From Candidatus Hydrogenedentota bacterium (GTDB taxonomy: Bacteria > Hydrogenedentota > Hydrogenedentia > Hydrogenedentales > JAEUWI01): a DNA stretch of 52,702 nucleotides. Location: positions 1 through 52,702 of the forward strand of contig JAJRPE010000175.1 in NCBI GenBank assembly GCA_024280935.1. The letters run 5' to 3'. Under the pieces are notes generated by a model that worked only from the letters and a program-made list of their open reading frames with translations, had not been told where the DNA came from and ran no database searches. Shown piece after piece: positions 4,785-52,702 of the stretch (position 1 is the first letter of the stretch; every line of letters starts with the position of its first letter). Position numbers and translations under genes: made by a program.

Positions 4785-4824
4785 GCAGCGACTTCGTGTC
4801 CATCTGTTTTTCACCGCAAAAGAC

Positions 4825-4972
4825 GCCGGGCAGGCGGGTGGACTTTCCAGTCCGCAATAAAGGCATCGTGATGCCACGCAGGCTACCTGGGCATATTGCA
4901 ACACACACGGGCCTCGAATGATTCAACGCGTGCCTTGTGTCGGGTAAGAAAACCCGACCTCCTGCCTACGTG
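4825..4972 (+). repeat. BC-type composite element, copy 1 (hairpin GYGGACT-TTCC-AGTCCGC ... hairpin GNCGGGT-AAGAAA-ACCCGNC)
   Basis: About 148 bp, alignable end to end with 42405-42552 (same orientation) and 20767-20912 (inverted). Degenerate GTGAAC-type shell ends at about 4803-4815 and 4970-4982. Confidence 0.85.
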
Positions 4973-5059
4973 AACACGTGCCAAAATGTTTACCACGGAA
5001 AGCACGGAAAAGAAATTCAACCTGTCGTTGTGAATTCACGGAGCCAGGTAAACCCTGCT

Positions 5060-6673: not shown

Positions 6674-6682
6674 AACACCACT

Positions 6683-6813
6683 ACGGGTGCCACGGGTAGG
6701 CCTCTCAGGGCTTTACCCGTGTAGTGCCTGCCGACAATCAGGGGACTATACAGTTTCATGAGACCTTGGGTTTTTCACGGGTAAACCCTGCGGGCCTACC
6801 CGTGGCACCCGAC
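6683..6813. repeat. Inverted pair of A-type units (6683-6724 forward, 6776-6813 reverse) around a 51-bp spacer
   Basis: acgggtgccacgggtaggcctctcagggctttacccgtgtag ... cacgggtaaaccctgcgggcctacccgtggcacccgac. It starts 10 nt after the GT39 stop. Confidence 0.9.
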
Positions 6814-6837
6814 GTATCTCTCTTGAGAATCTAAAGT

Positions 6838-6937
6838 GGCTGGGCCACAACCAAATACTATTTGCCACGAAGAGTCGAAGAACACGAAGGGAGCGCGACG
6901 GGGAGACGTAACAAGTTGCCCGGTCCGGGATAAATCC
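6838..6937 (+). repeat. L-type repeat (GGCCRCAACCAAA...CCACGAAG...CGAAGAACACGAAGGG...GTAACARGTTGCNCGGTCCG...TAAAT)
   Basis: It matches the reverse complement of 52599-52702 over about 100 nt. Confidence 0.8.
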
Positions 6938-6940
6938 CAT

Positions 6941-7434
6941 CGGCTATGCCATAGTCCGCGAAGCGGATGTCGGACTAAAGCCTGGGGTGAAGCGAGGCAC
7001 GAGCGGAGCCCCAGGAAGCGAATAGCAATAACGAGAAAAAGCCCGCGAAGCGGGTGACGGACAATCGGGCTGGCTTGGTAAAACACGGCACACAAGAGGA
7101 GCTGCCAAATGGGTTCATCGTATTGCAATGCAATCTCATCTACCCCATGGTGTTTTCAACCAAGGGCCGCCAAAAATGGATTGACAATACAATCTCAACC
7201 AGGAGGAATCTCACAAGGAGATGACGTTCCAAGTCGAATTCATCGGGCTGCTTGAAAAGCATCGCGTTGGATACAATGAACGGTATCTGTGGGACTGATG
7301 GGTTTCCGCCACCCGCTTCGCGGGCTTGGGGTTCAGGTATAACATTGGTCCTGGGGCTACGCTCGTACCTCGCTTCACCCCAGGCTTTAATCTGTCACCC
7401 GCTACGCGGGCTATTGGGAAACACTTGATAGCCG
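6941..7434. mobile_element. Decayed REPtron: inverted composite REP arms (6941-7064, 7301-7434) flanking a RAYT-like transposase remnant
   Basis: The arms align in inverted orientation. Each holds three hairpin modules (YCCGCG-WAG-CGGR; CCTGGGGTGAAGCGAGGYACGAGCGNAGCCCCAGG; GCCCGCGAAGCGGGT). The interior holds the remnant at 7132-7298. Confidence 0.65.
7132..7298 (+). pseudogene. Remnant of an IS200/IS605-like Y1 (REP-associated, RAYT) transposase: N- and C-terminal ends only, frameshifted
   Basis: Frame 1 reads (L)QCNLIYPMVFSTKGRQKWIDN, which resembles the conserved N-terminal ..L.H.VFSTK.R.P.I.. of this family. Frame 3 reads FQVEFIGLLEKHRVGYNERYLWD*, which resembles the typical C-terminus ..LL.K.G.E.DERY.WD. 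The HUH/Tyr core is missing. Family assignment is from memory of family sequences. Confidence 0.5.
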
Positions 7435-9789: not shown

Positions 9790-9861
9790 GATGGGGTAGG
9801 ATCATGGAAATTGAGTCCGATGACTCATCGACTTGGGAATCTTCCAGCCGTTTCTTAACGA

Positions 9862-9989
9862 TTCACGGCCCCAAAAAGCTCCCCTCCTTGGAGGGGCTGG
9901 GGGTGGGTCAGTTGCATCGTGCATAAGGAAACCCACCCCTAACCCCTCCCAGGAGGGGAATAAGACCGTTGGCTTCGCCAACAAAAATG
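9862..9989. repeat. H-type repeat with nested palindrome (CCCCTCCTTGGAGGGG...GGGGTGGGT / ACCCACCCC...CCCCTCCCAGGAGGGG)
   Basis: The outer part ttcacggcccc aaaaagctcccctccttgg...ggggaataagaccgttggcttcgccaacaaaaatg matches 17558-17630. The inner 62 bp is an extra nested palindrome. Confidence 0.85.
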
Positions 9990-10084
9990 CGCCGTTAGGG
10001 TTATTTCAACGGGTTCTTTTGACCTATAATGCAGCGGGCATGGTCCCGCCTTGATAGTAGTGCGTACTTATTTCGGAGTTTAAG

Positions 10085-13149: not shown

Positions 13150-13430
13150 TGCCTTCCTCATAGAGCCTCGAACACGCGCTTTCCGGGAGTGTCCAAGGGG
13201 CTGGAGGAAGGGCGTAATAGAAGAACACCACGGACACTGTGCCGCCCTTTCAGGGCTGTTATTATTTCTTCATTCTAACCCAAAGGCGTTGCCCTGGGCT
13301 AACCTGTTGTGCCCCTTCGGGGCGCTGACCCCATAATCCAAGGCTATAATAGCGCCTCCCCGCTTCGTACGTTCGAAACCGCGTTGCCAGCGGAGTGTGC
13401 TATGCACCAAAAGATATGGGTAAAGACAAG

Positions 13431-13643
13431 GTAAGCGTTCACGGCCCATGCCATCTTGGCCCTTTAAAAACAACAGTCGGGTGCCATGGGTAGGCCTCTG
13501 AGGGCTTACCTGTGTAGTTCCTATCGGTGAGGGAGACGACCCAAAACCAGAGACAGTGCATCTGCACGGGTAAACCCTACCGGGCCTACCCGTGGCACTC
13601 GACGGTCTTTTTGTTGACTATAGTTGCCCGTTCCAACGCTTAC
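13431..13643. mobile_element. MITE (213 bp) with termini GTAAGCGTTCACGG / CCAACGCTTAC and a perfect 8-bp TSD AAGACAAG; cargo is an inverted pair of A-type units
   Basis: AAGACAAG occurs at 13423-13430 and again at 13644-13651, immediately outside the inverted termini. The interior holds A units at 13476-13517 and 13565-13603. Confidence 0.8.
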
Positions 13644-13719
13644 AAGACAAGAAACTCGTACGGATGCACGCTGAACATCGTAAGTACATCCTGCGAAACC
13701 TATAAGGTCGCTTCACACT

Positions 13720-17331: not shown

Positions 17332-17395
17332 ACGCTGAGTCTCCTCATTCCGAGGATAAAGACGCAGCCTGGCGACAAGTATTCAAAAAATAATC

Positions 17396-17543
17396 GTAAG
17401 CGTTCAGCCCCAAGGGGATTTTACACCGTCATTCCCACGCACGTGGGAATTCCAGAACGCGGTAGAAACCTCTTCGGTCATGCTGGATCCCCGCATTCGC
17501 GGGGATGACGATCTATTTTTGTATTCAGATGGTGAACGCTTAC
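17396..17543. mobile_element. MITE (148 bp), termini GTAAGCGTTCAG / GTGAACGCTTAC, 8-bp TSD AAATAATC; cargo is the D-type double hairpin
   Basis: AAATAATC occurs at 17388-17395 and 17544-17551. The interior has tcattcccacgcacgtgggaat and ggatccccgcattcgcggggatga hairpins, the reverse orientation of 24885-25002 and 46118-46226. Confidence 0.8.
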
Positions 17544-17551
17544 AAATAATC

Positions 17552-17643
17552 GTAAGAGTTCACGGGGCCGAAAAGGCTCCCCTCCTTGGCGGGGAACATA
17601 AGGACGTTGGCTCCGCCAACCCAAAACATGGGTGAATGCTTAC
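17552..17643. mobile_element. MITE (92 bp), termini GTAAGAGTTCAC / GTGAATGCTTAC, flanks AAATAATC / AAATAACC; cargo is the H-type module
   Basis: It directly abuts the previous element and shares its right-hand duplication. The interior matches the outer part of 9862-9989. Confidence 0.75.
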
Positions 17644-17870
17644 AAATAACCGATGGGCCATTGTAGCACCGAAGAAGGGGGCAATAAAGTGCGAATAATG
17701 CTACCATGCCTTTCCCGCGACACCGCCCCGGTGTCCAACTCCCGCAGCGACGGCCTTTCAGTCGCTTTGGCGCGAAATCTTCTGGTACACTGATGTCGGA
17801 GCAGTAGGTGGTGGGTAATCACAGAGTCGAATGGCCCGGTGCGATTCCGAGGACCAATTTTGGAGATTCC

Positions 17871-20172: not shown

Positions 20173-20758
20173 GGTCTTACTCATCGGATCGGGAAATCGA
20201 GACAAGGCCCGTGAGCTGGCCGAACTCCTTCACGGGCTGCCGTGGGAAGTAAAGTGCTTGAAGGACCTTCCGGCGGTGGCGGAGCCCGAAGAAGACGGCG
20301 ATACCTTTGAAGCCAACGCCCTCAAGAAAGCGCGTTTCTATGGAGCGCATTTCGATGTGGCCTGCGTGGCAGACGACTCTGGATTGTGCGTGGACGCGCT
20401 GGACGGCGCTCCAGGCGTTTATTCGGCACGCTACGGTGGCGAGCATTGTAGCTATGAGGACAACAACAGAAAGCTGCTGAAGGCGTTAGCGGAAATGCCA
20501 TGGCACGAGCGCACGGCCCATTTTTCTTGCTGTGCGGCCTTCCTGCCGAAGGACCATGATATTCCCTACCTGGCAAAAGGGGTGGTGGCGGGGCACATCG
20601 CCGTGGCACCATCTGGCAATTCTGGTTTCGGCTATGACCCGCTTTTTGTGCCCGATGGCGAAGAACGAAGCTTTGCCGAAATGGGTCCTGAAGAGAAGCA
20701 CGCGATAAGCCACCGGGGCCGGGCCTTTGCGCGAATTCGTAGCTTTCTGGAATTGTAA
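20165..20758 (+). CDS. rdgB: Non-canonical purine NTP pyrophosphatase (RdgB/HAM1)
   Basis: [66 protein letters not shown]. 8-nt overlap with rph. Confidence 0.93.
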
Positions 20759-20918
20759 GAGTTGCCGGGAAGCAGGAGGGCGGGTTTTCCTACCCGCCAC
20801 AAAGCACCCGTTGGGCCAGCCAATGTGCATGAGTCACGGAAGAGTCGCAGCGGCCTCTGCTTGCATCACGCCGCACTTATTGCGGACTGGAAAGTCCGCA
20901 CGCCTTCCCGATGTCTAC
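20755..20918. mobile_element. MITE-like element with BC-type cargo (inverted copy); left terminus GTAAGAGTTGCC, right terminus degenerate
   Basis: 20767-20912 is the reverse complement of the BC elements at 4825 and 42405. GTAA of the left terminus contains the rdgB TAA stop (20756-20758). No TSD is detectable. Confidence 0.65.
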
Positions 20919-24884: not shown

Positions 24885-25002
24885 GTGAGCGTCGCGCATA
24901 ACCCAAGATCGTCATCCGCACGAACGCGGGGAGTCGGTAGTGATTCAGGGCGATCTTACTAATTCTAGATTCCCACGTGCGTGGGAATGATGTGGCGCTT
25001 TT
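24885..25002. mobile_element. MITE-like element with D-type double-hairpin cargo, degenerate termini (GTGAGCGTCGCGCAT ... TGTGGCGCTTTT)
   Basis: gatcgtcatccgcacgaacgcgggga ... attcccacgtgcgtgggaatga aligns with 46118-46226 and the reverse complement of 17426-17513. Confidence 0.6.
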
Positions 25003-25063
25003 TTTGTTTTTTTGGCCTTTTCGTTGAGTAAGGGCCTAACGTTAACCTACGGAACGCCTTCCC

Positions 25064-25516: not shown

Positions 25517-25521
25517 AACGA

Positions 25522-25560
25522 CACGGGTAAGCCCTGAGAGGCCTACCGGTGGCACCCGCC
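25522..25560. repeat. A-type palindromic unit, 6 nt after the rpiB stop
   Basis: cacgggtaagccctgagaggcctaccggtggcacccgcc. Confidence 0.85.
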
Positions 25561-25725
25561 GGTTGTTTATTAATGGTCAATATAACCCAAGAAAACTTTT
25601 CTTGTTGAGTTCGAACAGGTTTTCATCGAGGTTACAATGGCAGGGGCACAACCGAGAATTGGGGCCCTTGCCGCACGCAGCTTGAATTGAAATTGTTGGG
25701 GGTATTTACGCATGGAGAATAGTGA

Positions 25726-27120: not shown

Positions 27121-27231
27121 GCTAAGCGTTCACGCCCTTCTGCTATTTTTATTTCACCTCGACACGACAAAATACGGCTACCGCACGGGCAAGGGCTATC
27201 GCCCCTTGTCCGTGGCACGCCTGACGCTTCC
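27121..27231. repeat. Shell-type element with A-variant hairpin cargo; left terminus GCTAAGCGTTCAC, right terminus degenerate
   Basis: gctaagcgttcacgccc ... gcacgggcaagggctatcgccccttgtccgtggcacgcc ... ctgacgcttcc. No TSD seen. Confidence 0.55.
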
Positions 27232-28680: not shown

Positions 28681-29994
28681 TTGGACCAGAATTTACGCCT
28701 GATATTACAACAGATTGAAGCAGAAAAAAGCATTGATCGGGAGACACTGATCGAGGCGATTCGCAGTGCCATCGAGAGTGCTGCCCGAAAAGATGCGGGC
28801 AATGTGAGTAATATTACCGTAGATGTTGATCCAGACACCCTTGCTTTCAAGGTCTTCGAAATTAAGACCGTCATGGAAGAGGTGGAGGATTCCACGACTG
28901 AGATTTCGCTCAGCGATGCCTTGGCATTGAATGAGGCGGCGGTCGTCGGCAATCGATTAAAAATACAAACACATCCGAAAGGCTTTGGTCGTATTGCCGC
29001 GCAAACCGCAAAGCAAGTAATCATACAGAAAATTAAAGATGCCGAGCGGGACAATATCTACGATGAATACAAGGAACGCGAAGGTGAGCTAATCACGGGA
29101 AGCGTGAAGCGTCTCAGCCATGGCAATATCATCGTATCCATCGGCAAAGTCGAGGCGCTGATCCCCTACCGCGAGCAATCTCCCCGCGAGACCTACCGGC
29201 CTGGCGACCGAATTCGAGCCGTGCTGACCGAAGTAGAAAAGTCTTCCAAAGGTGCCCAGGTCATTCTTTCTCGCACGTCTCCTGAGTTGGTGCTCAGCTT
29301 GTTCGAGCTTGAAGTGCCGGAGCTCTATGACGAGACCATTGAGATTATGGCTATCGCACGGGAAGCGGGTAGCCGCACAAAGGTGGCGATACGCTCAAAT
29401 GACGTAAATGTAGACCCAGTGGGGGCCTGCGTTGGCATGAAGGGTTCGCGCGTGCGCTCGGTGGTGGAGGAGCTGTCGGGTGAAAAGATCGATATCGTTC
29501 GATGGAGCGACAATGTTTCCGAATTGTGCGCCAACGCCTTGAACCCGGCGGATATTATACAAATTCAGATGGACGAGGAGCAAGGGAACATTCAGGTCAT
29601 CGTTCCCCAAGACCAATTGTCGCTGGCTATCGGAAAACGTGGACAAAATGCCCGTTTGGCGTCTAAACTAATAGGCTGGAATATAGATATTCAGGGCGAA
29701 GCCGATGGTGAGGAAGAAGAAGTGGATGCCCTGTTTGAAGATAGCGACGACGTGGCGAACAGCGATGCTGGGGATGAGTCCACAGAGTCCGATAACACTG
29801 ACGACGTGGCGGAGTCCAATGCTGAGGATGAGTCCACGGAGTCCGATAACACCGACGAAGTAGCGGAATCCAATGCTGAGGATGAGTCCACAGAGTCCGA
29901 TGACACCGACGACGTGGCGGAGTCCGATACCGAGGGCGAGACCGCAGAGTCCGATGACACCAACAAAGTGACGGAGGGTGACGAGGCAAAATAA
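28681..29994 (+). CDS. nusA: Transcription termination/antitermination factor NusA with an acidic tandem-repeat C-terminal tail
   Basis: S1: GELITGSVKRLSHGNIIVSIGKVEALIPYREQ. KH1/KH2: VDPVGACVGMKGSRVRSVVEELSGEKIDIV and LSLAIGKRGQNARLASKLIGWNIDI. TTG start with AAGGAG upstream. Confidence 0.95.
   Translation: MDQNLRLILQQIEAEKSIDRETLIEAIRSAIESAARKDAGNVSNITVDVDPDTLAFKVFEIKTVMEEVEDSTTEISLSDALALNEAAVVGNRLKIQTHPKGFGRIAAQTAKQVIIQKIKDAERDNIYDEYKEREGELITGSVKRLSHGNIIVSIGKVEALIPYREQSPRETYRPGDRIRAVLTEVEKSSKGAQVILSRTSPELVLSLFELEVPELYDETIEIMAIAREAGSRTKVAIRSNDVNVDPVGACVGMKGSRVRSVVEELSGEKIDIVRWSDNVSELCANALNPADIIQIQMDEEQGNIQVIVPQDQLSLAIGKRGQNARLASKLIGWNIDIQGEADGEEEEVDALFEDSDDVANSDAGDESTESDNTDDVAESNAEDESTESDNTDEVAESNAEDESTESDDTDDVAESDTEGETAESDDTNKVTEGDEAK
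29741..29985 (+). repeat. 54-bp in-frame tandem repeat, about 4.5 copies (DESTESDNTDDVAESNAE units) within nusA
   Basis: Units at 29773-29826, 29827-29880 and 29881-29934, with partial units on both sides. Only a few substitutions between units. Confidence 0.9.
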
Positions 29995-30092: not shown

Positions 30093-33056
30093 ATGCAAAC
30101 AGTTGCCAGCTTGGCAAAACGCCTGGATATGAGTGCAGACGACGCAGTGGAGACGCTGCGGAAGCTCAGTTTTGATATCGGTGGCGTCGAAACCAACATC
30201 GATGATGATCAGTGCGATCTTCTCATTGATGTTGATGAAGATCCGTCTGTACTCGACGGCCTCCTCCAGGAAATCAAGAAAAAAGAAGATATCGAGCGCA
30301 AGAAAGCGGAGCGCGTGGAGAAGGCGGAAGCCAAGAAAAAGGCGGCGGCGGCGAAGAAAAAGGCGGCGGCGGAGAAGAAGGCGGCGGCAGAAGCCAAGAA
30401 AGTGGAAGCGGAGGAGAAAAAGGCCGCCGCAGCAATCGCAAAAGCGAAGGCAGCGGAAGCAGAGTCCGAGGAGCCAAGGCCCGAGGAGCCAAGGCCCGAG
30501 GAGTCCCAAGCCGCCGTTCTTGCACCCGAGGAAGCGCCAGAGGCCACCGTTGTTGTCGTCGAAACAAGTCCCGATGTCGCGACGACGGCGGCGACGACTG
30601 AGGATTCGAGCGAAGCGGCGGAACCCACAGCCGAAACCCCCGAGCCGGATCCACCGGAAAAATCAGACGACGCTGAAAAAGAAGCGGATGCACCTGTTGA
30701 GATTCTGCCTCCTGCGGAACCCGATTCGGAAGCGGGCGAAGGTGGGAAAAGCCATCGTTCGGTCGAAGCGCCGGCCCATGAATCAACCATGGCTAAAGCT
30801 GAGATTCTTCAGGAGAAAGAGGAAGAGGAGCGCGCCAAGAAACCGGTCCGCCCTCTGGCAACGCCAGATCCGGATGTGGTCGCGGCAGTAATTCGCCGTG
30901 ACCAGGAAAAACGCCAGGGCCTTCTTCGGCCCAATCGCGGCGCAGCGGGCGGCCCTCGTGGCCGGGCTGGTGCTGGAGGTGCGGCAGGACCTCGTGGTGC
31001 GACAGGATCCCGTGGCCCAGCGGGGGCGGCAGGCCGATCAAAAAAACCACCGAGCATAGAAGAGGAAGCCAAGCGGAGTCAGCAATTCCGCAACGCACCC
31101 AAGAAAGCGGGTGTAGGTGTCGGCAAGGTAATTCGCAAGAAGCCCAAACGCACCGAGCGTGCCCGAGCTCTTGAGGGCAACCTTCGTCGCGACGCTGCGG
31201 CAGCCGTGCGGGAATTTCAGTCTGGCGGCGGAGGCGGGGGAAAGAAACGCCGCAAAAAGCGCCACTCCGATGTAGAAACGGCGGTTGTGGAGGAGGTGAT
31301 GGGCGGTACTATTGAAGTTGACGAGACCATGAGCGTGGAGCAGCTTGCCGAAGCCATGTCTTGTTCGGTAAACGATCTGATTCTGGACCTCATGGACGAC
31401 AACATGATGGTAAATAAGAACCAGAATCTCGACATGGAGGTTATTCGCAAACTCGCCGGGAAGCGTGAGTTTGAGGTAGTATCGATCATCCCCGAAGAAG
31501 ACGAAGCCCTGGCCGATGTGCCGGACGAACCCGCTGATCTTCTTTTGCGCCCGCCCGTCGTGACGATTATGGGTCATGTGGACCACGGCAAAACCTCTTT
31601 GCTCGATGTGGTTCGCAAGGCCAACGTGGCGGATGGCGAGGCCGGTGGCATCACGCAGCACATCGCTGCCTATGATGTGGAACTCGAAGCGGGTCGCATC
31701 GTCTTCCTCGATACGCCCGGTCACGAAGCCTTCACGCAAATGCGTTCCCGAGGTGCCAGCATCACCGATGTGGTTGTACTTGTGGTTGCCGCCGATGACG
31801 GCGTGAAGCCCCAGACCATTGAGGCCATCGACCACGCTAAAGCCGCCGAAGTTCCCATTGTTGTGGCTATCAATAAGTGCGATAAGCCCGATTCCCAGCC
31901 GGATCGCGTGCGCACCGAGCTGGCGAATTATGGCCTTCAGGACAGCAAGTGGGGCGGCGACACGACCATGATCAATGTGTCGGCCCATTCCGGCGAAGGC
32001 ATCGATGAGCTGATGGAGTTGCTTGCCCTTGAGTCGGAAATGCTCGAACTCAAGGCCAACCCCGACAAGAAAGCCCGTGGTGCCATCGTAGAAGCCGAAC
32101 TCTCCAAAGGCCATGGTCCTGTCGCGTGGGTTCTCGTCCAGAGCGGCACGTTGCGCGTCGGCGATATATTTCTCTCTGGCGAGACCTGTGGCCGCGTCCG
32201 GACGATGACGAATTCCAAGGGAAAACAGATAAAGGAGGCGGGGCCATCGACACCCGTTCTCGTCACAGGTTTTGATTCCGTTACCGATTCAGGCGAACAG
32301 TTCTACGCGCTCGAGGAGGAACGTGTTGCGCGGACTATAGCAGACAAACGTTCCGCGCTAAGCCGACACAAACGTGGCCGGGCGACTGCCAAACACATGA
32401 CCTTGGAAGATTTCCACGCCATGATGGAAGGGGTGGAACAGAAAACGCTGAATATTATCATCAAGGCGGACACGCAAGGTTCTGCGGACGTGCTGGTGTC
32501 CAGTTTTTCCAAATTGGGCAATGAAGAAGTTACGATCAATATTGTGCATTCTGGTGTGGGCGGCGTAAATGAATCCGATGTTTTGTTGGCTGGTGCAAGT
32601 GATGCCGTGGTCATCGGCTTCCACGTGACCGCAGCCGCCAAGGTCAAAACAATGGCCGAGGCCGAAGGTGTGGACATCCGCACCTACCTGATCATCTACG
32701 AAGCGATTGACGAGGTCCATCGTGCGCTTGAAGGCATGTTGACACCGGACTCGAAAGAGGTCATTGTTGGCCACGCGGAGATTCGCCAGGTCTTCCGTTC
32801 CTCAAAGTTCGGCAATATCGCCGGTTCCATCCAGCAGGATGGTGAAACGGTGCGTGGTGCAATGGCCCGCCTTGTTCGCGATGATGTGGTGATTTACACC
32901 GGCAGGATTGCGACGGTGCGACGGGAGAAGGACGAAGTCAAGTCGGTATCCACCGGCTTTGAGTGCGGCCTTAAACTCGAACGTTTCGACGATATTCAAG
33001 TGGGTGACATCATCGAGACCTATCGCGTTGAGAGTGTGGCCAAGACGCTCGCCTAG
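30093..33056 (+). CDS. infB: Translation initiation factor IF-2
   Basis: G domain [29 protein letters not shown]. The N-terminal 400 aa or so are low complexity (KKAAAE runs, [16 protein letters not shown] repeats). Confidence 0.97.
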
Positions 33057-42386: not shown

Positions 42387-42562
42387 GTAACGTGTGCGTT
42401 CACAGTCGGCAGGCGTGCGGACTTTCCAGTCCGCAATAAAGGCAGCGCGATACCAGCACAGGCCGCTTGGCACGCTTGTATCACTCACGGTCCTCGGTGC
42501 ATACAACGCGTACCTTGTGCCGGGTAAGAAAACCCGTCCTCCCGTTTTCCGTGGACGCTTAC
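42387..42562. mobile_element. MITE-like element with BC-type cargo, copy 2; termini GTAACGTGTGCGTTCAC / GTGGACGCTTAC
   Basis: The BC core 42405-42552 aligns with 4825-4972. Shell-like termini are recognisable. No clean TSD. Confidence 0.65.
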
Positions 42563-43560: not shown

Positions 43561-43961
43561 GATAAGCTTTTACAACAGAATACACTCGTTCTTGATGTTG
43601 CCTTGGTGGCATGAAAAAGGACTTGTTTTGAGCGCCAACGGCGCGTTTTATACCAGCCTGGGGCAACGCCCCAGGACAGAGAAAACTCGAATGCTGAGGG
43701 CTGAAAGCCCGATATATCCGTTGACTTCACACCTATGCCTCATCCTATTCAGCACCATCTATTTTTCGTACTGAGAGTCAATTTAACAATTACGGAACTC
43801 ATTGGATTGGGGTATAGTACATGGATCGGGCTTTCAGCCCTCTTCTCCTCTTGACATGTTACCTGGGGCGTTGCCCCAGGCTGGTATGGATTCGGGCCGT
43901 TGGCCCTGTTTTGGACAATTGAACGTATGTCTATATCCATGAATAACGCCTAAACGCTTAC
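43561..43961. repeat. 400-bp element with degenerate shell termini (GATAAGCTTTTAC / TAAACGCTTAC) enclosing an 85-95-bp inverted repeat around an AT-rich 100-bp core
   Basis: Arms at 43631-43719 and 43820-43914 (gccaacggc...ataccagcctggggcaacgccccagg...gagggctgaaagcccgat versus its reverse complement). Core at 43720-43819. Confidence 0.75.
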
Positions 43962-44050: not shown

Positions 44051-46117
44051 ATGAGAATCATTTCAAAAGCCTCTTGGCCTTTCGTTGTATTGGTGTGTTT
44101 GTCGCTGAGCATCCCTACCCCAGCGCACGCCGACGATTTGGAGGCCATGAAGGGAAAACTGCACGGTGACCACAGTTGGATGATGTGGGCCACGGCAAGC
44201 GTGTTGTCGGACGAAGAGCGTGCCTATCTTGCGCCAGAGCTTGAATTGCTGATCGAACACTACACCCATCTACCCGACATGAATTGGTCCAACTCCGGCA
44301 CGTGGGGAGGCTGGTCGGGATTGCCCGATGCGGGATGGTCGCCCGATGTGCGGCGCGAGTGGGGGATTTCCCAGGCCTGTGACTGGAGTCCGGTGAGCCG
44401 CCAGGGACATCAAGTTCATCTTCATTCGCCGCCCGGCACCTACGAGGCATCGCGCACGCTCTATCCCAAGGCCATCGAATTATTGAAGTTGGGCAGACAC
44501 GGCGATGCTATTCGCATGTTTGGTGCCGTGTTTCATTCGATTCAGGACTCGGCGACCTTCCCGCGCATGCAGGCGATCCATCGTGCGTCAAAATTCGCCT
44601 ATGAGAAAACCCGTATTACCGGCTATCAGCCCCAAATACTGAGTGATACGCCCGAGGAGGTGGGGGAGGCCTTGGTGAAGCGGGTTGAGGGCATGGTCCA
44701 CTTTGTGGAAACGGTTGCCCTGGAACTCAGGCAGGCTATTTTGGAGGACGATCTGGAGCGCTACAACGAGCTGCGTGTTCGCTGCACGAACGAGGCCGCC
44801 AAAGTCGTCACCGATGCCCTTCACACCGCCATCGCACTGGCCGGGCCAAGGCCCGCGTATGTGGCACCGGCGGCCAACAAAAATCTGGTAACCAATGCGA
44901 ACGTGGAAGAAGAGGATTTTTGGGAGCCTTGGCCCGAGGGCTGGGTGGGTGCCCATGGGGATAAGCAGGACCGCGTGGGGCGTATCGAATGGGAAGGGCT
45001 GGCCATACGAAACGGCAACGTCTATCATTCGGGGCGGCATTCGCTCAAACTCATGTGGGCGGGGACACAGGGCTTGGAATGGCGGCAGACGTGGCCTGCG
45101 GCATCATTTGTAAGACCCGGCCAGCGATATCGTGCCAGCGCATGGGTGCGGACCGCCCAGGCGACGGGAGAGTCCTTTGTGGTGCTTCAGTTTTCCGACG
45201 CGGCAGCACAGTTGGTGCAGGAAGTTAAAAGCACCGCCATTCAGGGCGATCACGATTGGACGCAACTGGCCGCGGAAGCGGATGTGCCCGAGGGTGCTGT
45301 GCGCGTCCGTGTCATCTTGCGCAGTGTGGAGAATGAAGGGGCGACGTGGTTTGACGACATAGCCCTGCACCGCCTGGAATCCGTTCCCACTGCGGAAGGT
45401 GTGCCAGCGTCCCAATCAGCCCCACGGACGGAAGACCGGGTTCTTCGTTTTACCTTCAATGAGACCTCCGGTGTCCATGTGAATGATCACTCCCCCTACG
45501 CCGCGTTAAATGGCCCCAACATGACCTTTTCGGCGGGCATTCCGGCGGAGTTGCACGCCCAGGATGACCAGCGTGGTGCCGTGATATCTTTCGATGGAAT
45601 CGATGATTTCCTCGAATGTCCCGCGTCCCACATTCAGGATATGCATGCCCCGGAGGGTGCCATGACCCTTATGCTTTGGGTGCGCAACACCGGCGAAGCC
45701 CAGGATGCTGTGCTGGTGCAGAAAGAACAGCGCCCACGGGATGGAAAAGCGCGAGGCTATCGCCTGAGTCTTAACGAGGGAGGCAACGTGCAGTGGACCG
45801 TCCACACGGAAAGCGGCCCCGTGATTGCCGTGTCGAAAGCGGCCATTCCGGGAAACCAATGGGTACACATCGCCGCAGTCAGCGTGCCAGGCGAGTCGTT
45901 GATGATCTACATTGACGGCGTGCTTCAGGGAACTGCGGAACTGAAGGACAAAGTCCTACGACCGCGGAAAGCCCGTGTAGGCGCGCCGCCAGCCCTGTAT
46001 CTGGGAGCGAACACCGGAGTACGTGATTTTTTCCAAGGCCAGTTTGATGACCTGATCTTGTTGAATCGTGCGCTGGCACCCGATGAAATCGTGACTTACG
46101 CTGAGCAATCAAACTAA
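44051..46117 (+). CDS. Secreted multidomain protein: helical N-terminal domain (possible Zn-PLC/P1-nuclease-like) + CBM4/9-like + LamG (Laminin_G_3) domain
   Basis: Signal WPFVVLVCLSLSIPTPAHA. HSIQDSATFPRMQAIH (H-x3-D...P..H pattern). CBM-like SGRHSLKL...WVR...VVLQF...WFDDIAL. LamG: ISFDGIDDFLEC...MTLMLWV...WVHIAAV...IYIDGV...FQGQFDDLILLNRAL. Confidence 0.8.
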   Translation: MRIISKASWPFVVLVCLSLSIPTPAHADDLEAMKGKLHGDHSWMMWATASVLSDEERAYLAPELELLIEHYTHLPDMNWSNSGTWGGWSGLPDAGWSPDVRREWGISQACDWSPVSRQGHQVHLHSPPGTYEASRTLYPKAIELLKLGRHGDAIRMFGAVFHSIQDSATFPRMQAIHRASKFAYEKTRITGYQPQILSDTPEEVGEALVKRVEGMVHFVETVALELRQAILEDDLERYNELRVRCTNEAAKVVTDALHTAIALAGPRPAYVAPAANKNLVTNANVEEEDFWEPWPEGWVGAHGDKQDRVGRIEWEGLAIRNGNVYHSGRHSLKLMWAGTQGLEWRQTWPAASFVRPGQRYRASAWVRTAQATGESFVVLQFSDAAAQLVQEVKSTAIQGDHDWTQLAAEADVPEGAVRVRVILRSVENEGATWFDDIALHRLESVPTAEGVPASQSAPRTEDRVLRFTFNETSGVHVNDHSPYAALNGPNMTFSAGIPAELHAQDDQRGAVISFDGIDDFLECPASHIQDMHAPEGAMTLMLWVRNTGEAQDAVLVQKEQRPRDGKARGYRLSLNEGGNVQWTVHTESGPVIAVSKAAIPGNQWVHIAAVSVPGESLMIYIDGVLQGTAELKDKVLRPRKARVGAPPALYLGANTGVRDFFQGQFDDLILLNRALAPDEIVTYAEQSN

Positions 46118-46226
46118 TGTTCGCTTCGCCCACAACCCAAGACTGTCATCCCCGCGAACGCGGGGATCCAGTGGAGATTTGGTGCAAACTTACCGCGTTC
46201 TGGATTCCCACGTGCGTGGGAATGAC
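46118..46226. repeat. D-type double-hairpin element, copy 3 (variant left end GTTCGCTTCGCCCACAACCCAA)
   Basis: gtcatccccgcgaacgcggggatcc ... ggattcccacgtgcgtgggaatgac. The left-end motif recurs alone at 46276-46296. Confidence 0.8.
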
Positions 46227-46310
46227 ATGGGCTTATCTTGTTTCTTATAGTGGTTTCACGGAGTAAGGTACTAAGGTGAGCTTCGCCCACAACCCAATTT
46301 TCGCCAACAA

Positions 46311-46526
46311 GGAAGCGTCAAGGGTGCCACCCTCACGCGGGGGAGCGAAGCGGGGAAGCTTGCGGGTGCAAGTCATCAGGATAGCCTCGTGTATAAAAAG
46401 AGACGACAAGAATGTTACGACGTGTATTGTGAACCAGGTGACGAATTGAAACACGTTTCAGGAGTCTGCACCCGCAAACTTAGCCGGGAACCGGCTTCGT
46501 GTGAGGGGGGCACCCTTGAAGCTTCC
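46311..46526. repeat. Inverted repeat with arms of about 60 bp (46311-46372 / 46466-46526) around a 93-bp AT-rich core
   Basis: ggaagcgtcaagggtgccaccctcacgc...cttgcgggtgcaag versus ctgcacccgcaaac...gtgaggggggcacccttgaagcttcc. Confidence 0.8.
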
Positions 46527-46581
46527 TTTGAAGGTTCTGGGCACATCAAATGGCTCAAAAGCCCTGTTTTCAGCCATCAAA

Positions 46582-51995: not shown

Positions 51996-52145
51996 TCGAT
52001 TCCCTCCCCTTAAATCGCCCCGTGAATATCTATCGGAACGATAATATACAAATGGGACGGCCCTCAATGACTACAATCATAGACAATAAAAGCGGCGTAA
52101 AACAAAAACGTCCAGAATCCGAATGCCCTGTGCAGTGAAATCTTC

Positions 52146-52271
52146 GTAAGCATTCACACCCTCCGCTTTTTTCTTGATATCACCTTGACCCTATAAAAAC
52201 AACCTTCGGGTGCCACAGACAAGCCCGGTAGGGCTTGTCCGTGGCACCCCAAGTGGCCCGTGAACGCTTAC
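52146..52271. mobile_element. MITE (126 bp), termini GTAAGCATTCAC / GTGAACGCTTAC, perfect 8-bp TSD AAATCTTC; cargo is an A-variant hairpin
   Basis: AAATCTTC occurs at 52138-52145 and 52272-52279. The interior hairpin is gggtgccacagacaagccc-ggta-gggcttgtccgtggcaccc (52208-52249). Confidence 0.8.
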
Positions 52272-52563
52272 AAATCTTCTTCGTGGGGCTATTTCAAGGC
52301 ATAGATAGAGACACCGTTGTTTGATAGTTGGAGTAGTTGTACAGCGGATTCTTTATGGTGAGGAAGTTGCAATCCGTGGTCAAAGTTTTGGTTGCGGCCA
52401 ATGGCTGCTCTGAACTACTATCCGCCATTTTCTTGTTTTCTCAATAAGAAAATTTTTCTCAGATTATGTAACGTATTGATGTCAAGTCGTTTACAGAATA
52501 GAAACGAACGGGTGTTTATTTTGAGTTTCGCCGGAGTTCTGTTTGATCTCAACAGTTTTTTTA

Positions 52564-52702
52564 CCACGAAGGACACGAAGGGCGCACGAAGAAGGAAAAA
52601 TTTAAGGACGGACCGTGCAACCTGTTACCTCTATTCTCCTCTTCGTGCGCCCTTCGTGTTCTTCGTGCCTTCGTGGTGAATAAAGTTTTGGTTGCGGCCA
52701 AC
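52564..52702. repeat. L-type repeat: inverted CACGAAG-rich arms (52564-52595 / 52641-52676) plus a GTTGGCCGCAACCAAAACTTT end; runs into the window edge
   Basis: The reverse complement of 52599-52702 aligns with 6838-6937. AAAGTTTTGGTTGCGGCCAA also occurs at 52382-52401. Confidence 0.75.

Follow-up and report, generated by a model that had tools for sequence, protein, structure and literature searches.

Judged from its sequence, the pair of terminal sequences that encloses a set of short intergenic repeats in a 52,702-bp bacterial chromosomal contig (G+C 55%) is the terminal inverted repeat of the IS66 family, accompanied by an 8-bp target duplication and of the single-ORF ISAva2/ISGka4-like kind. 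We refer to these ends as the shell, and to the whole stretch of DNA analysed as the window. The elements are very likely non-coding MITEs with IS66-type ends that are mobilised in trans, and they form at least four families (A, BC, D and H) within one superfamily defined by its ends. Besides older copies, the window contains no fewer than five non-coding derivatives (92-213 bp) in which only the shell ends are kept.

An ORF and Pfam scan of the window returned ordinary envelope and housekeeping genes, and the nearest named homologues of their proteins belong to Candidatus Hydrogenedentes/Hydrogenedentota. None of 30 long ORFs contains a transposase domain. Neither an IS66 transposase gene nor a full-length IS with shell ends was found within the 52.7-kb window, and the same holds there for a RAYT (Y1 transposase) or other second transposase gene. 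Comparison of the window with Rfam gave no family at the gathering score. The intergenic spacers are densely packed with short repeats. Inside the ORF at 28681-29994, a 54-nt tandem repeat of five to six units extends over 29691-29960, and the N-terminal region of the IF-2 gene contains 21-nt Lys/Ala-rich repeats (30313-30451).

Shell ends and element copies in the window

With up to two mismatches allowed, GTAAGCGTTCAC and GTGAACGCTTAC occur at 14 sites in the window against 2.94 expected, and none of 100 shuffles reached this number. The heptamer GTAAGCG is found 12 times (4.0 expected), and ten shell ends are strong. In the four clean elements (A1, D1, H and A3), both ends show 0-3 mismatches and are flanked by an 8-bp direct repeat that differs from site to site (Table 1). 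The terminal repeat is short, with 12 nt clearly conserved, and the outer 12-14 nt are the sole sequence common to the four families. The initial annotation had described the termini as the constant part and the interiors as unrelated types, a description borne out by the enriched 12-mer and by the lack of mutual similarity among A, BC, D and H.

Weaker copies were scored, at the positions that the initial annotation had proposed, with a weight matrix made from the eight ends of A1, D1, H and A3. The matrix finds 46 sites of at least 8 bits in the window versus ~32 in shuffles, ends at the level of the weak copies being common by chance. The proposal that the shell brackets all copies holds cleanly for A1, D1, H and A3 and, with two significant but damaged ends each, for BC1 and the 400-bp element. 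It is weak or unconfirmed for BC2, BC3, A2 and H', each of which has one recognisable end, for D2, whose ends are marginal, and for D3, which has none. The shell observation is real for the core set and overstated for the remaining copies.

Table 1. Shell-bounded elements, degenerate copies and shell-less units in the window. P values refer to the weight matrix.
Copy	Position	Description	Ends (left; right)	Flanking 8-bp duplication	Fold
A1	13431-13643	213-bp MITE; interior an inverted A-hairpin doublet	GTAAGCGTTCAC; CCAACGCTTAC	AAGACAAG at 13423-13430 and 13644-13651, 8/8	one long hairpin, -46.9 kcal/mol, z = -5.4
D1	17396-17543	148-bp MITE; interior an inverted pair of GTCAT-tagged hairpins	GTAAGCGTTCAG; GTGAACGCTTAC	AAATAATC at 17388-17395 and 17544-17551, 8/8	z = -4.7
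H	17552-17643	92-bp MITE	GTAAGAGTTCAC; GTGAATGCTTAC	AAATAATC / AAATAACC, 7/8	
A3	52146-52271	126-bp MITE; single long palindromic A hairpin	GTAAGCATTCAC; GTGAACGCTTAC	AAATCTTC at 52138-52145 and 52272-52279, 8/8	z = -6.5
BC1	42387-42562	176-bp MITE, IS66-type ends; two small hairpins, B (GCGGACTTTCCAGTCCGC) and C (CGGGTAAGAAAACCCG)	GTAA[CGTGT]GCGTTCAC, 5-bp insertion (P ~0.003); GTGGACGCTTAC, 1 mismatch (P ~0.002)	only 4/8	z = -2.1 (whole element)
400-bp element	43562-43961	long inverted repeat	degenerate, ATAAGCTTTTAC (P 0.006); CTAAACGCTTAC (P 0.002)	none at flanks	
A2	27122-27231	A3-like	CTAAGCGTTCAC, intact (P 0.002); CTGA-CGCTTCC, degenerate (P 0.09)	none recognisable at flanks	
BC2	20755-20918, reverse	old BC copy	GTAAGAGTTGCC, recognisable (P 0.004); not significant		
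BC3	4803-4982	old BC copy	none; GTGAACACGTGCC, weakly shell-like (P 0.011)		
D2	24885-25047	88-bp D core, flanks unlike D1	marginal (P 0.10, 0.06)		
D3	46113-46279	D core, same alternative flanks as D2	not shell-like		
H'	9855-10003	decayed H-type	TTAACGATTCAC (P 0.013); none		
A doublet	6674-6814	REPIN-like; 76% identical to A1 interior	no recognisable shell		-45.4 kcal/mol, z = -8.1
Single A unit	1844-1899	directly downstream of sulfatase gene	shell-less		
Single A unit (leader + hairpin)	25517-25583	directly after rpiB stop codon	shell P 0.11		

That the degenerate termini might be chance matches had been named at the outset as a possible objection, and for BC1 and the 400-bp element the significance of both ends speaks against it; it stands where ends lie at background level, as on the left of BC3, on the right of BC2 and at both ends of D3. 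As a general explanation, chance matches or a regulatory palindrome (such as CcpA cre-like operator half-sites) flanking ordinary intergenic hairpins is extremely improbable. Such a reading accommodates the background-level ends and the frequency of weak matrix hits, but four elements carry perfect or near-perfect 8-bp duplications of different sequence, the same ends and 8-bp duplications recur in many phyla and on annotated IS66 elements (see below), and promoter and terminator scans gave no enrichment. We reject it for A1, D1, H, A3 and BC1 and retain it only as the null for the weakest copies.

D1 and H adjoin head to tail (17388-17651) with one target copy in common, the array containing three target copies, AAATAATC, AAATAATC and AAATAACC. 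This arrangement means either that one element inserted exactly beside an existing one or that the pair moved as a single unit. Within the 400-bp element, the interior (43631-43907) contains perfect 26-nt arms, ATACCAGCCTGGGGCAACGCCCCAGG, as well as a GGGCTGAAAGCCC hairpin; arms and hairpin presumably resemble repeats present in many PVC-group genomes.

The shell elements are non-coding and sit at gene boundaries, in intergenic spacers. BC1 begins 1 nt past the TAG stop of a MacB-like gene. BC2 spans the entire spacer between a Ham1/RdgB-like and a Sua5/YrdC-like gene, and its GTAAG end provides a TAA stop (20756-20758), while the ATG of the downstream ORF (20911) falls within its other end. 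Contigs of the MAG GCA_021647925.1 match parts of the window at 99.0-99.5% identity, and in a 99%-identical contig A1 occupies the same position. One contig of this MAG (L310) terminates inside D1, and another (L120) stops ~260 bp short of BC1, which suggests that shell repeats break short-read assemblies. Recognising these elements should thus aid both gene calling and assembly, as they lie at gene boundaries, one of them supplies a stop codon, and they coincide with breaks in the related MAG. Syntenic relatives with 62-63% protein identity contain none of the elements, their divergence being too great to define clean empty sites, and no empty insertion site was found in either the 99%-identical MAG contig or these relatives. 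Exact-protein look-ups with HslU, RpiB, Lgt and Sua5 gave no match, and the look-ups with the ABC ATPase and the ECF sigma factor yielded nothing beyond short same-species contigs.

IS66-family elements and the same ends in other phyla

Inverted repeats starting with GTAAGCG and 8-bp direct repeats are given as the hallmark of IS66 in PMC11946415 (citing Ross et al. 2021), and one IS66-family inverted repeat is printed as GTAAGCGTCCGG... (PMC12888890). A search of a plasmid collection with a Nostoc-type element led to Trichormus variabilis plasmid A and its ISAva2, whose transposase ORF (annotated as 'IS66-like element ISAva2 family transposase') matches the Pfam family DDE_Tnp_IS66 with E = 6e-41. 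The ISAva2 unit has a length of 1,547 bp, reads GTAAGGATTCAGG...CCTGAATCCTTAC and is flanked by the perfect 8-bp duplication GAATCCAG. Three of four further single-ORF IS66-family elements on plasmids have like ends with an 8-bp duplication: an element of Chroococcidiopsis (GTAACCGTTCAAGGGG / GTAATTGTTCACGGGG, duplication TAAAGAAA), one of Oscillatoria (GTAACTGCTCACC, duplication GTGAATTC) and ISGka4 of Geobacillus (GTAACTATTCAGCCC, duplication AACTCGTC). The fourth, ISKpn15 (L314), showed no such duplication at its flanks for the boundaries that we tried.

The ends of the annotated single-ORF IS66 elements follow the pattern GTAAnnnTTCA, which the window sequence GTAAGCGTTCACGG fits closely. 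The window elements thus resemble ISAva2, ISGka4 and ISKpn15-like elements in their ends (GTAAG followed by nnTTCA(C/G)), in the 8-bp duplication and in their A/T-rich targets. They differ in having a length of only 92-400 bp and no transposase, and in a conserved end of ~12 nt compared with the 20-30 nt quoted for IS66. A literature search for the TIR strings produced unrelated primer matches only, and the best 120 matches of a search for IS66-transposase homologues were all of cyanobacterial type.

When species-representative genomes were searched with the pattern GTAAGMRTTCA-N100-130-TGAAYKCTTAC, at least 119 loci were obtained, with fewer than 20 expected by chance according to our estimate. 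These loci span Nostoc, Scytonema, Moorena, Chloroflexota, Planctomycetota, Armatimonadota, Legionella, Nitrospinota, candidate phyla and others. Among the matches listed for which both flanks are available, the 8-bp duplication is perfect in 53 of 118 and agrees at 7/8 positions in a further 15; the perfect duplications of the listed matches contain 71% A+T versus 54% for the surrounding loci. We propose a simple annotation rule, by which GTAAGnnTTCA ends with an 8-bp duplication indicate an IS66-type MITE, and which holds from cyanobacteria to candidate phyla. No full-length IS lies between the shell ends at the 119 listed loci, nor does any IS66 ORF, and the only transposase ORF that recurs at them is, by sequence, an IS605-type TnpB-like ORF. 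A scan of viral contigs with GTAAGCGTTCACGG gave 112 loci, and at none of them does a partner end occur together with a target duplication.

After trimming 25 nt per end, the interiors of the 119 matches listed fall into at least 73 unrelated clusters. Most genomes among these matches yield one interior cluster; Moorena producens 3L yields four elements with four interiors. One shell with many interiors is thus normal for elements of this class. Beside the same outer TIR, the foreign elements often carry extended, family-specific subterminal repeats. Heptamer arrays of the form (CAGCYRT)n lie just inside the TIR in many foreign elements (L004, L006, L024, L063, L072, L075, L077 and L090), with cyanobacteria, Nitrospinota, Phycisphaerae, a Deltaproteobacteria MAG and unclassified MAGs as hosts, and the element at L072 consists almost entirely of heptamers. 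A transposase may bind these heptamers as subterminal repeats.

Beyond the end pattern, the window matches the 119 foreign loci listed in a single hairpin: a 31-nt stretch of the extra hairpin in H' (9930-9960) recurs with 100% identity in four copies without a shell in Moorena producens 3L (L072, 3828-3974 and 6101-6131). Certain hairpin classes recur under the same ends. Inverted GTCAT...ATGAC pairs in a position like that in D1 occur in 6 of the 119 matches listed, against an estimated ~0.5 expected, namely in Legionella saoudiensis, a Roizmanbacteria MAG, a Brocadiaceae genome, and Sedimentisphaerales and Planctomycetota MAGs. The hairpin of H' has a counterpart, CCCTAACCC...GGGAGAGGG, inside elements of a Methylococcaceae MAG and an Armatimonadota MAG, and the CCCCTCC..GGAGGGG / GGGGTTAGGGGTGGG hairpin seems to be common to several phyla. 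The sample is small, and ancient MITE families that spread horizontally could account for the recurrent cargo classes as readily as repeated acquisition could. That similar hairpin cargos reappear within the same ends in several phyla offers a modest lead on the origin of MITE interiors.

Interiors and their origin

The A, BC, D and H interiors are mutually unrelated, and copies are homologous inside each type, as expected of MITE families from these alignments. An alignment of BC1 and BC3 with BC2 read in reverse spans the full length of the copies, terminal regions included, with 77% identity between BC3 and BC1 over 109 nt. D1, D2 and D3 have in common an 88-bp core, composed of two GTCAT-tagged hairpins in inverted arrangement (GTCATCCCCGCGAAYGCGGGGAT and GTCATTCCCACGCACGTGGGAAT), that in D3 is ~80% identical to D1. 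D3 was not listed in the initial annotation, and the homology between D2 and D3 runs ~45 nt past the end given there for D2 (25002), to ~25047. In the A interior, a ~40-nt hairpin occurs as an inverted doublet, and A1, A3 and several other loci have both the A hairpin and an A-rich leader in common. One of these loci, 25517-25583, carries the A unit in reverse orientation, with 82% complementarity across 67 nt to A1's left arm (13453-13519), and may be a decayed A3-like copy. According to the alignment, H' consists of H and an extra 61-nt palindromic segment at ~9882-9942. We also considered the BC interior as an inverted doublet; the alignment was suggestive, but it did not rise above shuffled controls. 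A metagenome scan with a 17-mer of the A hairpin gave 70 matches, none related to the window, and these were dismissed as chance matches.

The families could be separate foldback derivatives, each stemming from a different IS66 member, with the outer 12 nt conserved, the subterminal region and a local hairpin differing, and the doublets representing long inverted arms. The two halves of D1 are mutually inverted repeats well past the 12-mer and A1 forms a single long hairpin, as this would predict, and the family-specific subterminal repeats of the foreign elements point the same way. A further point in its favour is that several MITE families with different interiors, derived from one or more autonomous elements, have been documented (PMC3814204). 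We nevertheless consider this origin rather doubtful, as neither BC1 nor H shows significant similarity between its left and right halves beyond the ends, and as it leaves unexplained the D core in non-homologous flanks and the A doublet without a shell.

Modules outside the shell had been suggested as a test of whether interiors are mobile cargo, and at least two such modules exist: the A doublet at 6674-6814 and the D core, which in D2 and D3 lies in flanks different from those of D1. Compared with the shell, the ends of D3 show 6/12 and 9/12 mismatches. This loss exceeds what decay would predict from a core divergence of ~20%, and the same applies to the A doublet at 6674-6814; some interior modules therefore appear to have a life of their own, which a plain MITE model does not explain. 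D3 lies between two copies of a perfect 18-nt direct repeat, GCTTCGCCCACAACCCAA (46123-46140 and 46280-46297), which could be a partial tandem copy or a long duplication left by some other mode of insertion.

These modules raise the question of cargo acquisition, in which a minimal H-like MITE of 92 bp with IS66 ends would have been invaded by mobile REP/REPIN doublets, or would have picked them up by template switching during repair, so that the interiors would be true swapped modules. The naked A doublet and D core, the 61-nt palindromic insert that distinguishes H' from H, the presence of the same cargo classes (GTCAT pairs and the CCCTAACCC / GGGAGGGG hairpin) inside the shells of other phyla, and the shell-free occurrence in Moorena of part of a CCCTAACCC / GGGAGGGG-type hairpin all fit such a history. 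Against it, no nested target duplication or fixed junction was found around any cargo module, and neither of the routes offered by the initial annotation, secondary insertion into the shell or capture by it, was thus demonstrated. In the one 52.7-kb contig we also find no empty shell with the arms of a loaded copy, and no RAYT or second transposase. Moreover, A1, A3 and the unit at 25517-25583 share the A-rich leader as well as the hairpin, which fits common descent of whole arms. On balance, acquisition of this kind is unlikely.

Within the preferred reading of non-coding MITEs defined by their IS66-type ends, interiors were probably exchanged or invaded over time, since some modules also occur outside the shell. 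Possible routes to such change are nested insertion, recombination between neighbours (for example D1 and H) and foldback of the ends of different parent ISs. A stronger proposal, that IS66-type ends and REP-like doublets are functionally coupled, with the shell acting as a vehicle that acquires REPIN modules or as their preferred landing site, appears quite improbable to us. It draws on the hairpin classes that recur under the same TIR, namely GTCAT doublets and CCCTAACCC / GGGAGGGG hairpins and, in the window, also A and B units. If true, the coupling would link two otherwise separate kinds of bacterial selfish DNA.

Further long inverted repeats without the GTAAGCG shell are present at 1427-1662, 6951-7414, 46309-46528 and 52565-52667, with arms of 39, 66, 31 and 28 nt and complementarities of 88-96%; the segment 1456-1493 is similar to 6981-7018. 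These probably represent additional MITE-like families that have other ends. Near the contig end, a 20-nt exact repeat occurs twice 300 bp apart (52382-52401 and 52682-52701). An inverted match between 6843-6927 and 52609-52699 (77% identical) points to yet another repeat family.

Mobilisation and comparison with known systems

For mobilisation in trans and for the origin of the interiors, we infer the following course. An IS66-type DDE transposase encoded elsewhere would bind to ends of ~12-25 bp and transpose the element, with duplication of 8 bp of an A/T-rich target. Because only the ends would be needed, the interior would be free to differ, and unconstrained interiors could diversify or be exchanged until at least four families (A, BC, D and H) coexist. 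The outer ends of adjacent elements such as D1 and H could also mobilise everything between them, which would be a simple route to chimeras.

The A and D modules, and B less clearly, resemble REP and REPIN sequences in being GC-rich hairpins of 20-40 nt that form inverted doublets with a spacer and also occur solo in intergenic regions. According to PMC3733652, REP palindromes carry GTAG or CGTC as a conserved 5' tetranucleotide. This canonical tag is absent from the window modules, as the D units begin with GTCAT and the A units read ...CCCGTGTAG, with GTAG on the 3' side. The doublets of the window further differ from REPINs in their IS66-type caps and 8-bp duplications, which REPINs lack, and in that no RAYT accompanies them in the window. 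The BOX elements of pneumococci and the BIMEs of E. coli are intergenic mosaics of a few recurring modules, like the repeats of the window; unlike the window elements, they are without transposase-type TIRs or target duplications.

A parallel in end structure is Nezha of Anabaena and Nostoc (Zhou et al. 2008), described in PMC3184786 as a non-coding element of 130-170 bp with direct repeats and with TIRs common to a full-length IS. The cluster of 133-134-bp Nostoc elements with GTAAGAATTCAG ends that we recovered is probably the published Nezha. The window elements share the end pattern of these Nezha-type elements, but their interiors are unrelated and their host belongs to a different phylum.

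The initial annotation knew of no described family with this behaviour. With the shell assigned to the IS66 TIR, this view is no longer tenable, as families with common ends and different interiors are the normal structure of a MITE superfamily. A survey of prokaryotic MITEs describes mobilisation by transposases that share only the TIR with an element of different internal sequence (PMC11602168). In rice, 36 Stowaway families have similar TIRs, and MITE families can outnumber the autonomous elements (PMC3814204). Like Stowaway and Tourist, the window elements combine many unrelated interiors with the TIR and target duplication of a single transposase superfamily; Stowaway and Tourist differ from them in being eukaryotic, in depending on Tc1/mariner or PIF transposases and in generating TA or TAA duplications. 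What is new here is the presence of four such families (A, BC, D and H) in a Hydrogenedentota-like genome that has no annotation of such elements. The elements are lineage-new examples of an established MITE pattern, from a poorly studied bacterial lineage.
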